Origin: Terriglobia bacterium
Lineage (GTDB): Bacteria; Acidobacteriota; Terriglobia; 20CM-2-55-15
DNA: 64,000 bases
Direction of reading: 5' to 3'
NCBI GenBank assembly: GCA_965218585.1
Contig: CBDCLE010000017.1
Coordinates: 71,470 to 135,469 of the forward strand
The translations under genes were made by a program, and so were the position numbers. The notes under the pieces were generated by a model. That model did not search any database. It worked only from the letters and a program-made list of their open reading frames with translations, and had not been told where the DNA came from. Below, one piece after another: positions 56,382-64,000 of the stretch (its first letter is position 1; each line of letters begins with the position of its first letter).

Positions 56382-56504
56382 GGGGATCAGAAAAGCGCTG
56401 CGATTCTATCGGAGGGGATTAGCAAGGTCAACGGACACGTGAGACTCCGATTGCTTCCAACTTCTTAGTTCTACTATCATTTGCCAAGAAGGAGGCCGGG
56501 ATCG

Positions 56505-56870
56505 TTGACAGATCGAAAAACCCTCGAATCTCTCGACTTAGAAGAAATCTATGAGACAGCACCCGTGGGCTTGTGCGTCTTTGATACGGACGTTCGGTAC
56601 GTTCGCATCAACCGATACCTGGCAGCGATCAACGGCAAACCGGCTTCCGAACACGTTGGTCGATCGATTGAGGAAATGGCGCCCGAGGTGGCACCCACGG
56701 TGACACCGATGATCAAGAAGGTAATCGACACGGGTGAGCCGGTCTTCAATTGGGAAGTCATCAAACGAACGAACACGGGCGATTCTGAAACAGCTCAAGT
56801 TTTCCTTTGCACTTACCACCCACTCAGGACAGTCGACGGCGAGATAGTTGGCATTTCGTCTGTTGTGCAG
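56505..56870 (+). pseudogene. PAS-domain signalling protein, 3'-truncated by IS256 copy 2
   Basis: PAS fold (APVGLCVFDTDVRYVRINRYLAAINGKPASEHVGRS...). A strong RBS AAGGAGG lies 9 nt before TTG 56505. The ORF runs into the IS end at 56871 and terminates inside the IS. Confidence 0.7.
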
Positions 56871-58147
56871 GAGGTCATTACAAAAGGTGTGTAAAAGTCA
56901 TCAGGCGGCGGCCTTCGATTTCATCACGACTCTGATGCCGTCAGCGAATTGCTGGCCATCATAGACCTCTTGTAAGAGTTCGGATCCTTTTAAGTGTCGC
57001 CAAGCCTTCTCAGCGACACGTAGTAGCTTCCAGATCATTGCCGTTGCATTCTCGACACGCTTGAATCGGCGAGCGGCGTTGGTGCGGAGACGAACCATGT
57101 CGAAGGGCGATTCGACGATGTTGGTCGTTCTCAGATGCACCCAGTGTTGTTTCGGGAACTCATAGAAAGTAATCATCCGGTCCCAGTCCCGCAACAGCGT
57201 CTCACCCGCTTTGGGATAGTTCTTCTCATATCGGCGGACGAACTGATCCCGCTTTCGTTCGCAGGCCGCGCGGGAGTTCGCGAAGGCCATCCCATGAAGC
57301 AGCTGTCTGGCCGCGGGCTGCTCGGTCTTCGGCAGATGATCGACCACGTTGATCGACTTGTGGTTCCAGCAGCGTTGTTCCTGGCCCTGGGGCTGTTGCT
57401 CGGCCAGCGCGGACCAGATGCCCAGGTGACCGTCCGCGACAGTCAGCCGTCCCAGCTTCAGGCCCCGTCTCTGGAGATTGCGCAGAATGCGGCTCCAGGA
57501 CTCCTTGCTTTCCCGCTGCCCGCTCTCACAGGCCAACAGCACTTTGCGCCCGTCTGACAAGGCTCCGATGATCACCAGCAATGCCGCTCGCTCTTTCGCG
57601 ATCCCCGCTTTCACGTACAAGCCGTCTGCCCACTGGTACACGACCTCGAGGCCGGACAGGTCCTGCTGGACCCACTCGTCATACTCCAACTGCCAGGTCG
57701 ATTTCAGTCGTTGGATCGATGCTCGCGACAACGGAGCGCCAGCGCCAAGCAGTCCGCGCATGGCCTGCTCGAAGTCCCCTGTGGCCAGACCGTGGAGGTA
57801 GAGATCGGGAAGTAGCTCGCCCAGCTGTTTCGATTTCCGTCGAAAATACGGCAGGATCTGACTCTCGAACCGCTCGGCGGTGTTTCGAACCCGAGGTCGT
57901 CGAACCTCCATCGTACCGTTCATCATTGCGAAGCGTCGCGGCTTCCCGTGACCGTTCCGGTATCCTCGTCGATTCGGACTCCGCTCCAACTTTTCCCGAC
58001 CCAGAAATTGAGTGACTTCGTCCTCGAGCAGCTCCTGTAGCCAGACTTGGACCCGGGATCGCGCCCAGTCCTCCAAACCTTCATACGCGTTCGTTGACGC
58101 CACTGATGCCGGTATGTCCTTCTTCTTCATGGGTGGTGTACCTTTCT
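56871..58147 (-). mobile_element. IS256-family element, second copy (inverted relative to copy 1), missing about 88 bp of its left end including IRL
   Basis: Right end GAGGTCATTACAAAAGGTGTGTAAAAG is identical to copy 1. Identity to copy 1 stops 20 nt upstream of the transposase ATG (at 58147). No target duplication can be assessed. Confidence 0.8.
56901..58130 (-). CDS. IS256-family transposase (copy 2, ~99% aa identity to 8482..9711)
   Basis: Same protein as copy 1, with about 5 substitutions (e.g. EKSERS>EKLERS, ADSLYVK>ADGLYVK). Confidence 0.9.
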   Translation of the reverse strand: MKKKDIPASVASTNAYEGLEDWARSRVQVWLQELLEDEVTQFLGREKLERSPNRRGYRNGHGKPRRFAMMNGTMEVRRPRVRNTAERFESQILPYFRRKSKQLGELLPDLYLHGLATGDFEQAMRGLLGAGAPLSRASIQRLKSTWQLEYDEWVQQDLSGLEVVYQWADGLYVKAGIAKERAALLVIIGALSDGRKVLLACESGQRESKESWSRILRNLQRRGLKLGRLTVADGHLGIWSALAEQQPQGQEQRCWNHKSINVVDHLPKTEQPAARQLLHGMAFANSRAACERKRDQFVRRYEKNYPKAGETLLRDWDRMITFYEFPKQHWVHLRTTNIVESPFDMVRLRTNAARRFKRVENATAMIWKLLRVAEKAWRHLKGSELLQEVYDGQQFADGIRVVMKSKAAA

Positions 58148-58708
58148 TGCCCGCAACCAATCGATAACGAAAGGATCCCCGGACCCGGGCGGCAAGATGT
58201 CGCTGGTGCTGTCAATCCTGCTGTTTCCGGCAAAGAACATCAGCTTGTTGGGCTGAGTGCTGGTTGGCAAAGGCGCAAACCACTGGTCACAAACGGCGAA
58301 CTCGTTTGCCAGAAACGTTGTGATGGGCACGGCGCCCGGCCGTTGGAATCCCATCACTTCGGGTTCGGTCGGGTCAGGGATCTCGAAGCCTCTCTCTTGG
58401 GCATACTCGAAGTACGAACGGGCAAAGCCGTTCATACTGTGACCGTTGCCGCTTTTCGCAAGCTGGACGGCGATTCTCTCCCGTGCGTGTGGCGCATCGC
58501 CCGGCAACCACTTGTCTCCTGCTTCGAAGGGAAAGAACGACTTGCTGCCAAACCGATTCTCGTAGTCGGAGCGCTCAAGCGGGCGATGCAATCCGTTGAC
58601 GTCCCTGCCGAGGTCGTAGCTGAGGTGTCCCAGCATGTGGTCGAAGGAGCGGTCTTCGAACATCAGATAGACGATCGTGTCAACGAGTCTGGGGTCTGTC
58701 ATGAGCAC
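58148..58708 (-). pseudogene. phosphoesterase family protein (PlcC/AcpA-type phospholipase C/acid phosphatase) N-terminal fragment, 3'-truncated at the IS copy 2 boundary
   Basis: N-terminal motif TIVYLMFEDRSFDHMLGHL is typical of Pfam phosphoesterase (PF04185). Only about 185 aa remain before the IS sequence, whereas full-length members are 500-700 aa. Confidence 0.65.
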
Positions 58709-61559: not shown

Positions 61560-61998
61560 CTCGCCGGGAGATTCGCATGGTCGGCTTGACGCTCGACAAG
61601 GGGAGAACCGCATTTAAGAAGGCACGCGAGCTAAACGGAACGTCAACTCACCGGGAGGGACTTAATGATCAATTATTGGCCTCTCAAATTTCTTGAATCC
61701 AAAGTCGTCCGTCGCCGAACTGTGGCCGGACTCCAGCAAATACGAGGCTTAATTCGAGATCAGATGCCTGAGCGTGCTCTTCAGCGTAAACTGGTTCTTG
61801 GAACCTGGAACATACGGAACTTCGATGACAATCGTTTCGGCCACGGCCCCCGCCTGACGGAATCTCTGTTTTACATCGCCGAGGTTATTTCGGCCTTCGA
61901 TGTCATCGCCATCCAGGAAACCGCAAGGGATCTGACCCCGCTCAGGCAGGTGATGACCATCCTGGGCCGGCACTATGAACTCATCGTAACTGACGTCG

Positions 61999-63383
61999 AG
62001 TTATTGTCAAAAGTGGTGTTTTGCCGATTGACTCAAGCGGCGGCCTGATCGACGTGGGTCACTTCGATTCCATCGTTGAATTTCACTCCAGTAATCACCT
62101 TGGGCAGATCATCGAATCCTCGTAATCGTCGCCAGTTCTTTTGAGCGCACTGTCCCAGTTTGAACATCATGTGCAGCATGCCAACCCGCGTCAGGCAACC
62201 CCTGGATCGCTTGGTTCGGTGGCGAATGGTAGCAAAGGTCGACTCAATGGGATTGGTCGTTCGGATGCTCTGCCAGTGCTTGGCCGGGAAGTTGAAGAAG
62301 GCCAGCAGTTCTTCTTTGTCTTTCTGGAGGCAGCGAGTGGCTTTCGGATACTTCGGCTCATAGGTTTCAATGAACAGATCGAATGCCTTCTCGGCGTCTG
62401 CCTGTGTCTGAGCCCGCCAGATCGCGTGCAAAGCCTGTTTCGCCTTCGCCTGGGCCGACTTCGGGAGCCCGTTCAGTACGTTCATGGTCTTGTGCATCCA
62501 GCAACGTTGGTGACGTGTCTCGGGATAGATTTCCTCCAGTGCGGCCCAGAATCCCATCGCACCGTCTCCGATGGCCAACTTCGGGATATTCATCCCACGC
62601 GACTTCAGCTTTAACAAGACCTCGCGCCAACTCTGTGTCGATTCCCGGACACCGTCTTCGATTGCCAGAAAACGTTTCTCTCCGCGTTGATTCGCGCCGA
62701 TCACCACCAGTGCGCACAACTTGGTTTCTTCGGCCCGCAGTCCGCTGTAGATACCGTCGGCCCAGACATAGACCCAGCGATCGGCATCCAATCGCTCCTC
62801 GCATCCCCGGCGGTACTGCTCGGCCCAGACCTGTTTCAACCGCGATACCGTGCTCGCCGACAGGCCCTGCGCCTGGGGTCCGACAAGAACTTTTAGAGCG
62901 TCACCCATCTCGCCGCTGGAGACGCCTTTCAAATACAACCACGGCACCGCTGCTTCCAGCGATTTCGTTTTCCGAATGTAGGGAGGTACCAGGGCCGACC
63001 GGAACGTTACCGGGTCGCCAGTCTTCGCTCGGACTTTCGGGATCTGGACCGTTACCGGCCCCAAACCGGTCTGCAGTTCACGTTCAGGCAGATAACCGTT
63101 GCGCACCACCCCGGCGTTGCCCGTCTCGGTTCTCCGATCGCCGTGGTGGGATAGCAGTTCCGCCAATTCGGTTTCCACCGCGCGTTGGATCAGTTGCTGA
63201 GCTCCAACTCGTAGTAGCTCTGTTATCGGATCCTCAATCGTCTCTCGACCCTCCGGTCCAGTCACGTTACTCTTGCTCATAGTGGCGTATCTCCCTTGGT
63301 TGCTTTGAAGTCTGGTAAACAACAAATCAACCAGATACGCCGCTCTTCCTCAATCCCTTAAACACCAGATTCGGTTATAACTC
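61999..63383 (-). mobile_element. IS256-family insertion sequence (distinct from the other two copies), 1385 bp, with 9-bp target-site duplication ACTGACGTC
   Basis: IRs GAGTTATTGTCAAAAGTGGTGTTT and GAGTTATAACCGAATCTGGTGTTT (reverse complement of the right end). ACTGACGTC occurs at 61990-61998 and again at 63384-63392. Confidence 0.85.
62033..63279 (-). CDS. IS256-family transposase (mutator-type DDE)
   Basis: Conserved IS256 transposase blocks (WQSIRTTNPIESTF, CWMHK). The start is likely at the MSKSNVT Met (63279), although the ORF extends to 63325. Confidence 0.9.
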
Positions 63384-64000
63384 ACTGACGTCACAGAGGG
63401 GCCCAGTGGGAACCTGGAGCGCCTCGCCTTCATTTACGACACGAACAAAGTATGGTTTCGCGACATCGCAGGAGAGATCGTCCTGCCTTTCAAGAAGCAG
63501 ATCAGCGATGTCACAAAGCGCAGATAGTTTGCTAGAACGCCGTTTACGTGTGCTTTCCAATCCGGTTGGTTCAAATTCGTCCTGTCTACGGTCCACATCT
63601 ACTACGGCAAACAGTCCAAGACGAGCAATGAATATAAAAGACGCGTCCGGGGAAATCGAGGGCATAGCGAAATTCCTCAAGGACCGAGCCGATGACGAAA
63701 AGGACAACTACATTCTCGTCGGTGACTTCAACATTGATAAGCCGGGCGACCCCACCTTTAACGCTTTAGCGGATCAAGGGTTTTCGCTGTTTCAGAACAA
63801 GATCGGTAGCAACCAGAAGAAGACCAAACATTATGACCAGATCTCATGGCTGCCCTCAGAACCGGGATTACTACAAACCGAGGGCGATCGAAATCAAGGA
63901 GTGCTGGACGTCTTCTCGGCCGTATTCAAGGAAACAGACTTTCCGAAGTACAAGAGAATTGTCGTAAAGACTCTCAAGAACAAACTCGATAGAGCCAAGT

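Follow-up and report, generated by a model that had tools for sequence, protein, structure and literature searches.

A probable variable patch of accessory genes eroded by insertion sequences, rather than a demonstrated genomic island, in a Terriglobia genome

Does a piece of bacterial chromosome crowded with insertion sequence (IS) elements and broken genes have to be the remnant of an integrated genomic island? The question is raised by the right end of a 64,000-nucleotide (nt) stretch of DNA from a Terriglobia bacterium (assembly GCA_965218585.1, contig CBDCLE010000017.1), hereafter the window. From about 56.4 kb to the window end lie two elements of the IS256 family, two gene fragments, a Fic protein, an astacin-like metallopeptidase and an endonuclease/exonuclease/phosphatase (EEP) gene, and the initial annotation, made from the sequence alone, had described this block as a variable or island region. 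The analysis presented here indicates that the right end of the window is probably a variable, IS-eroded chromosomal patch of accessory genes and that no genomic island is demonstrated there. The part of the earlier description that concerns mobile elements and decayed genes, in which the block is rich, therefore stands, and the part that concerns a classical island does not. The patch is nothing out of the ordinary, and all of its components fall in known families.

The inventory of the block is based on a list of open reading frames (ORFs) and a Pfam scan, and position numbers are those of the window. All the parts initially claimed were recovered close to where they had been placed (Table 1). 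Both transposases exceed the equivalog cut-off of 150 bits of the NCBIfam transpos_IS256 profile (274 bits for the first element, IS1, and 306 bits for the second, IS2), which bears out the family assignment, and since they share 35% identity, IS1 and IS2 are two different elements. The lack of housekeeping genes, by which the block had also been characterized, does not distinguish it because the 20 kb to its left likewise contain none and encode peptidases, beta-lactamase-type proteins, DUF305, GSDH and a symporter. Scans for promoters and terminators gave counts not above those of shuffled sequence, and Rfam returned no structured RNA match.

Table 1. Features of the block at the right end of the window (numbering of the 64,000-nt window)
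Feature	Positions	Strand	Basis
PAS-domain gene, 5' part	56505-56870	plus	Pfam PAS_4 2.9e-18 (ORF 56481-56894)
IS1, IS256-family, 1277 bp	56871-58147	minus	transposase; second copy fixing the ends
IS1 transposase gene, 409 aa	56901-58130	minus	Pfam Transposase_mut (PF00872) 5.7e-60 (ORF 56901-58160)
Phosphoesterase / phospholipase-C-family gene, 5' part, ~187 codons	58148-58708	minus	Pfam PF04185 4.7e-18 (ORF 58127-58708)
Fic gene, intact, 350 aa, class II	59088-60140	plus	Pfam Fic 6.4e-18 (ORF 59067-60140)
SCO6992/AbsR1-type astacin-fold zinc metallopeptidase-like gene, 368 aa after removal of one T	60452-61559	plus	Pfam Astacin, NCBIfam NF050131
EEP pseudogene, 5' part	61665-61997	plus	weak Exo_endo_phos match (ORF 61665-62048)
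IS2, IS256-family, 1386 bp	61998-63383	minus	inverted repeats, target duplication, transposase
IS2 transposase gene, 415 aa	62033-63280	minus	Pfam Transposase_mut (PF00872) 2.4e-62 (ORF 62033-63325)
EEP pseudogene, 3' part, continuing past the window	63393-64000	plus	TAG at 63525-63527, extra G at 63649

An independent assembly bears on how much of the apparent gene decay is biological. Exact-protein look-up of a cluster mate of the astacin-like protein led to a 136-kb metagenome contig of the European Nucleotide Archive (L001), which represents the same strain as the window and extends 7 kb past its end; such look-ups for other strains returned the same contig only. Over window positions 50450-64000 the two assemblies are 99.95% identical, with the same arrangement and the same two IS insertions. 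They differ at seven positions, three of them substitutions and four single-base differences in homopolymer length (54544, 60177, 60502 and 63649), and the window is one base longer at all four of the latter. At 54544 the window has A7 where L001 has A6, and the sodium:solute symporter gene is consequently read as two ORFs, 54028-56325 and 54216-54662. The astacin-like gene, whose true start lies at 60452, is broken by a surplus T at 60502 that comparison with L001 and with homologues revealed: the homologues are about 360-376 aa long, their N-terminus exceeds that of the window ORF by about 40 residues, and the missing N-terminal part is encoded upstream in another frame. L001, with the shorter homopolymers, encodes a complete symporter (616 aa) and a complete astacin-like protein (368 aa), and its EEP gene has no frameshift in the 3' part. 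Because three frame-breaking insertions are found where the strain otherwise differs by three substitutions, the window frameshifts are most likely homopolymer sequencing errors and not biology.

The EEP gene carries lesions that L001 shares. IS2 is bounded by imperfect terminal inverted repeats of 34 nt, whose arms are 71% complementary, and by a perfect 9-bp target duplication, ACTGACGTC, at 61989-61997 and 63384-63392. Once IS2 and one copy of the duplication are removed, the two halves of the EEP gene rejoin in frame, and the reconstructed product is 78% identical to an intact protein of 408 aa (P0140) that passes the Pfam PF03372 cut-off (34.3 against 24.5 bits). The motifs TWNIRNF, AIQE and VGDFNID are kept, as is SDHLPLWVEL in L001; no solved structure is detectable for the protein by sequence. 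The in-frame TAG at 63525-63527 is present in both assemblies, and L001 contains a second one beyond the window, just ahead of the catalytic SDHLPLW motif. Aligned with eight intact homologues, the first TAG falls on an invariant Gln and the second on an invariant Trp, and the two are therefore ordinary CAG-to-TAG and TGG-to-TAG transitions. Recoding of TAG was considered and ruled out on this account, the codons aligning to different invariant residues that are each one transition away from TAG. With the IS2 insertion and two in-frame TAG codons, the EEP gene is dead.

Base composition sets this gene apart from the rest of the block. Elsewhere in the window, 37 long ORFs provide a baseline GC content of 0.573 +/- 0.023 and a third-position GC content (GC3) of 0.650 +/- 0.050. 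The two EEP pieces (GC 0.526 for the 5' and 0.493 for the 3' part; GC3 0.595 and 0.455) have a GC content 2-3.5 standard deviations (SD) below window genes, so that the gene is, as initially noted, of lower GC as well as split by an IS element. The PAS fragment lies about 2 SD low in GC. The Fic gene, the astacin-like gene, the phosphoesterase fragment and both IS elements remain within about 1.5 SD of window genes, the furthest value being the GC3 of the phosphoesterase fragment at about 1.8 SD. Clearly foreign composition is thus confined to the EEP gene, with the PAS fragment weakly deviant, and a comparison of composition, which had been proposed as a check of the island view, singles out the EEP gene and finds native GC and GC3 in most of the block. 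The closest EEP homologue, at 78% identity, sits in contigs that carry planctomycete-type PSD/PSCyt genes. IS2 thus inserted into a horizontally acquired, low-GC EEP gene, which later gained nonsense mutations. The Fic and astacin-like genes between the two IS elements appear native in composition and intact once the probable error is corrected.

At the other end of the block, IS1 occupies the junction of two unrelated, convergent genes that both lack their 3' parts, in agreement with the two gene fragments initially described. The PAS ORF runs into IS1 and stops at 56894. In its homologues P0261 (196 aa) and P0262 (218 aa) a coiled-coil segment continues beyond ...SSVVQEV, and the window sequence departs from these closest intact-looking homologues exactly at the IS1 boundary. 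The phosphoesterase fragment on the other side covers positions 1-143 of the 356 of Pfam PF04185 and positions 44-186 of the 688 of the NCBIfam profile PC_PLC. A second copy, inverted and 99.1% identical (11 mismatches in 1277 bp), occupies 8465-9741 and allows the ends of IS1 to be set: identity between the copies begins and breaks off abruptly at 56871 and 58147. The two copies share one end point, which lies 17 nt ahead of the transposase ATG. No right inverted repeat is recognizable, the best alignment of the terminal 60 nt being an internal 12-nt match, and neither copy has a target duplication, the flanks differing at both.

Two near-identical copies in opposite orientation, both devoid of target duplications and bracketing about 47 kb of the window, could have recombined and inverted the DNA between them (8465-9741 to 56871-58147), thereby creating the PAS/phosphoesterase junction. 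Such an inversion should have left the missing gene halves at the first copy; that copy is flanked instead by an ABC-transporter intergenic region and by the start of a gene for an extracytoplasmic function (ECF) sigma factor, and the 9-bp IS1 flanks, when compared crosswise as an inversion would require, do not correspond. With unrelated flanking genes and no cross-combination duplication, inversion as the source of the fragments is largely refuted and we regard it as very improbable. A deletion adjacent to IS1 or an older rearrangement is the explanation that remains for the junction, and we infer that an IS1-associated deletion or recombination would have removed the 3' parts of both genes together with the intervening DNA.

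The surroundings of the first IS1 copy present a particularity of their own. Its left end adjoins the start of the ECF sigma-factor gene (9734-10284) and contains the ATG of ORF 9734-9982. This gene is found in two ORFs, 9734-9982 and 9952-10284, the frame shifting near a G-run at about 9925, a split that represents a further frameshift or an assembly error.

Does the block nevertheless belong to a classical integrated genomic island or a prophage remnant, with an integrase and an attachment site beyond the window end? Accessory-type genes, two IS elements and a low-GC gene would be at home in such an element, and homologues of the astacin-like gene adjoin mobile DNA elsewhere: an inovirus prophage lies near one of them (L091), IS6-family copies stand on both sides of two others (L094 and L095) and an rve-type IS adjoins a fourth (L088). 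L001 allows the right boundary to be located. In this contig the EEP gene continues for about 290 nt after the last window position, and three small ORFs of 163, 139 and 135 aa follow at L001 positions 13901-15395 (about 0.35-1.85 kb past the window end). None of the three has a match in Pfam, NCBIfam or PADLOC; the 135-aa product has a lipoprotein-like N-terminus. A dehydrogenase dependent on pyrroloquinoline quinone (PQQ) starts about 2.1 kb past the window end and is followed by an arylsulfotransferase, TauE and a molybdopterin enzyme. The block thus ends about 2 kb past the window end in L001, and its right boundary does lie outside the window, as had been supposed. The downstream inspection that the initial annotation had advised turned up none of the marks of an island boundary: no integrase or recombinase in the block or in L001 up to 7 kb beyond the window, no tRNA in the window or in L001, and no att-like direct repeat of at least 16 nt bracketing the block. 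Most of the block is native in GC and GC3, as seen above. A phage origin was also rejected: in IMG/VR the astacin-like protein has relatives that are distant and match it in part only (27-44% identity), and the EEP protein has none. An integrated island or prophage remnant is accordingly an unlikely account of the block.

The reading as a variable accessory patch is supported by comparison with relatives. Conservation of the same gene order across distant relatives, which would have marked a core region, was looked for, and the order is not conserved. Around the closest symporters (86-89% identity, in three Terriglobia/Acidobacteria metagenome-assembled genomes (MAGs) of a species-representative genome collection), only DUF4212 and SSF are shared, on either side. 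Contigs with astacin-like proteins at 74-83% identity have neighbours different from those of the window: a MutS-like gene next to a protein 80-83% identical to that of the window (L002), or a PIN toxin and a different Fic (L087), besides the mobile elements of L088, L091, L094 and L095 mentioned above. In L002, homologues of the 163-aa and 135-aa proteins (74% and 63% identity) still lie less than 4 kb from the astacin-like gene, so that part of the neighbourhood is ancestral and rearranged, not newly inserted. An apparent linkage with a PQQ-dehydrogenase in L096 and L097 was rejected, the 29-32% identity pointing to paralogues. Taken together with the lesions described above, these comparisons suggest that two different IS256-family elements are eroding a patch of accessory genes at the right end of the window.

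Some of the loci that carry astacin-family genes have features worth recording. In L094 (287-5859) and L095 (1084-3819), an astacin-family gene whose product is 78% identical to that of the window lies between repeated DDE_Tnp_IS240 genes in a composite-transposon-like arrangement, and L094 has a phage tail-sheath gene between the IS copies. On the 2.9-Mb contig L091 (10541-17074), two tandem inovirus-type modules (Phage_CRI replication protein and Zot) are found about 1.5 kb downstream of the astacin-family gene. In L002 (7941-9936), a 596-aa protein with MutS_III and MutS_V domains and a 62-aa ORF precede the astacin-like gene on the same strand; a MutS-like gene occurs in one of 85 loci of astacin homologues. 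In Streptomyces coelicolor, SCO6993, a protein of 606 aa considered here as a possible counterpart of the MutS-like protein, is encoded by the divergent neighbour of SCO6992 (PMC9705864).

The component of the patch with the widest interest is the astacin-like gene, which belongs to the already described SCO6992/AbsR1 family. ORF 60555-61559 matches Pfam Astacin (5.1e-10, 39.8 bits against a cut-off of 22.5), and the corrected protein matches NCBIfam NF050131 at 1.6e-104 over residues 28-368, aligned with positions 4-361 of the 361 of the profile. Its score of 349.8 bits is below the equivalog cut-off of 650, which makes it a distant family member and not an orthologue or equivalog of SCO6992. 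The family is large, with 2772 homologues at E <= 0.001 in our search, and its members remain 53-58% identical between MAGs named Gammaproteobacteria, Acidobacteriia and Xanthomonadales. The zinc-binding motif HExxHxxGxxHE, here HEIGHSLGFPHEH, and the Met-turn SxMHY, here SIMHY, can both be read in the window sequence. Among 76 aligned members the extended motif HExxHxxGxxHEH and the MHY Met-turn are invariant, including residues H156, E157, H160, H166, E167, M222, H223 and Y224, and the aligned C-termini end in ...MMW. The closest solved structure by sequence (6.7e-26) is that of myroilysin (PDB 5GWD, 5ZJK, 5CZW), on which the AlphaFold model superposes with a template-modelling (TM) score of 0.89, a root-mean-square deviation of 2.1 A and 31% identity. 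The mean predicted local distance difference test (pLDDT) value of the model is 83.8, with low to moderate confidence for the 40 N-terminal residues, and the model adds a C-terminal beta-sandwich that resembles pre-peptidase C-terminal (PPC) and collagen-binding domains.

What such a protein does inside or outside the cell can be approached from its N-terminus. Described astacins consist minimally of a signal peptide, a prosegment and a catalytic domain, and the latency of myroilysin relies on a cysteine switch (PMC9848320). No signal peptide was found in the SCO6992-type family: in 76 of 76 members the mean Kyte-Doolittle hydropathy of any 12-residue stretch within the first 70 residues is at most 1.47. 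The initial description of an M12A-type protease lacking an export signal, made for the window protein, is therefore right at the level of the family, which combines a complete zinc site with an N-terminus free of hydrophobic stretches. At least 90% of the 76 members have a Cys about 15 residues ahead of the catalytic domain, and the tail before this Cys contains a median of eight Lys/Arg against one Asp/Glu. The complete zinc site, the lack of an export signal, the basic tail and a near-invariant Cys at the place where a latency prosegment would be lead us to suggest that the astacin-fold protein most likely acts as a latent intracellular zinc hydrolase or peptidase.

Several points weigh against the picture drawn so far. 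The sole biochemical study of the family, carried out on SCO6992/AbsR1 of S. coelicolor, reported zinc binding and saw no protease activity on casein-type substrates; it described beta-glucuronidase activity for a maltose-binding protein fusion made in E. coli, and extra copies of the gene raised antibiotic production (PMC9705864). Conservation of the active site would, with due caution, fit a peptidase better than a glycosidase, and the proposed cysteine switch draws on conservation and position only. Concerning the patch as a whole, the designation 'accessory' is based on the lack of synteny at approximately the genus level and on context, the search for close relatives having yielded L001, of the same strain, and no other. 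A shared IS1 end without a right repeat leaves unexplained how this element spread and made the PAS/phosphoesterase junction, and the homopolymer insertions of the window could in principle be real mutations.

The Fic gene raises the possibility of a role in defence. Its product, likewise called as 350 aa in L001, contains the Fic motif HxFx(D/E)GNGRxxR (HPFQDGNGRLAR in the translation) and, about 130 residues upstream in the same chain, the inhibitory motif [ST]xxxE[GN], read as S-TRI-E-G in VESVGSSTRIEGAKL, which aligns to SSNRLEG of 8UQU, the closest solved chain (8.7e-40). A winged-helix-like domain forms the C-terminus. The assignment to class II, with both motifs in one polypeptide, is thus upheld, and the protein resembles SoFic, whose PADLOC profile it matches over its full length (5.2e-47). 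From these features it should be an auto-inhibited AMP-transferase of SoFic architecture. SoFic has been reported to protect against phage through AMPylation-driven abortive infection and, in E. coli, is countered by a small downstream protein (PMC12249575). A search for a small AS1-like antitoxin ORF downstream of the window Fic gene gave nothing convincing.

Could the Fic protein, the intracellular astacin-fold protein and the EEP nuclease then make up a small defence island, or a cluster with a joint anti-phage or toxin function? Besides the PADLOC match, this would agree with the different SoFic-like Fic and the PIN toxin that L087 encodes less than 3 kb from its astacin homologue, and with the EEP genes that are immediate same-strand neighbours of astacin homologues in L093 and L100 as well. 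The EEP gene of the window, however, is dead, and EEP homologues occur in three contexts without an astacin gene. PADLOC has no profile that matches the astacin-like protein, the EEP protein or the small neighbouring proteins, and the Fic protein reaches 63 bits against the cut-off of 550 of the SoFic equivalog NF046030. No partner gene is conserved across the 85 loci of astacin homologues: clustering of flanking ORFs yielded no specific candidate, the largest cluster, of 11 loci, being a single-linkage chain of unrelated response regulators and LuxR-type proteins. A cooperating defence cluster is, on balance, unlikely.

The recurrent proximity of EEP genes merits a closer look. In L093 (668-3061) and L100 (4673-7062), the astacin-family gene directly adjoins a 350-aa EEP gene on the same strand. 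The EEP proteins of L093 and L100 share 84% identity with each other and 28-30% with that of the window, and the adjacent astacin-like proteins of L093 and L100 are 60% identical; L100 is a gammaproteobacterial contig. The astacin-like proteins of the window/L001 and of L093 are 80% identical, and the L093 EEP gene has a GC content of 0.448 beside 0.611 for its astacin-like neighbour. The downstream slot thus holds different, independently acquired, low-GC EEP genes in window/L001 and L093, and the L093-type EEP gene again adjoins a less similar astacin homologue in L100, from which it might be supposed that SCO6992-type proteins function jointly with an EEP nuclease or phosphatase encoded next to them. 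Alternatively, the slot would be no more than an insertion hotspot, and we hold a functional astacin-EEP link to be unlikely, with little expectation that such a pair operates. Were it to exist, it would constitute an undescribed two-gene module serving toxin/defence functions or the processing of nucleic acids, with control exerted by a latent zinc peptidase on the nuclease or by the nuclease on the peptidase.

The main value of these observations concerns annotation. Homopolymer sequencing errors probably account for the apparent defects of the symporter and astacin-like genes and for one EEP lesion, and the IS insertions and nonsense codons are real lesions. The block also illustrates cleanly how IS256-type elements inactivate a newly acquired gene and, probably, remove parts of two others. 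Regarding the SCO6992-type protein, the name 'beta-glucuronidase' used by NCBI rests on a single study, and the conserved N-terminal Cys and the PPC-like domain suggest a testable alternative, that of a latent intracellular peptidase.

Compared with known systems, IS1 and IS2 share the Mutator-type DDE transposase and the length of IS256-family elements (1.28-1.39 kb). IS2 also has the imperfect terminal inverted repeats and the 9-bp target duplication typical of the family (8-9 bp), whereas IS1 departs from it at both copies in the missing right inverted repeat and target duplication. The EEP protein resembles the DNase I-like superfamily (PF03372) in its conserved motifs and through its intact homologue, which passes the Pfam cut-off, but the window copy is a pseudogene with no intact reading frame. 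The Fic protein shares with SoFic-type class II Fic proteins (PDB 3EQX/3ZCN; 8UQU) the Fic motif, the N-terminal inhibitory motif, the C-terminal winged-helix-like domain and the full-length PADLOC match; it differs by its sub-equivalog score and by the want of a convincing AS1-like ORF. The astacin-fold protein is like SCO6992/AbsR1 (NF050131, 'beta-glucuronidase AbsR1') in its length of about 360 aa, its full-length match, its HExxHxxGxxH motif and its lack of a signal peptide, and unlike it in scoring below the equivalog cut-off (350 against 650 bits). With myroilysin, a bacterial M12A peptidase, it has in common the HExxHxxGxxHE and SxMHY motifs, the fold and a Cys upstream of the catalytic domain. 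Unlike described astacins, the family to which it belongs dispenses with a signal peptide and combines a K/R-rich N-terminal tail with a C-terminal beta-sandwich of the PPC/collagen-binding-like type.

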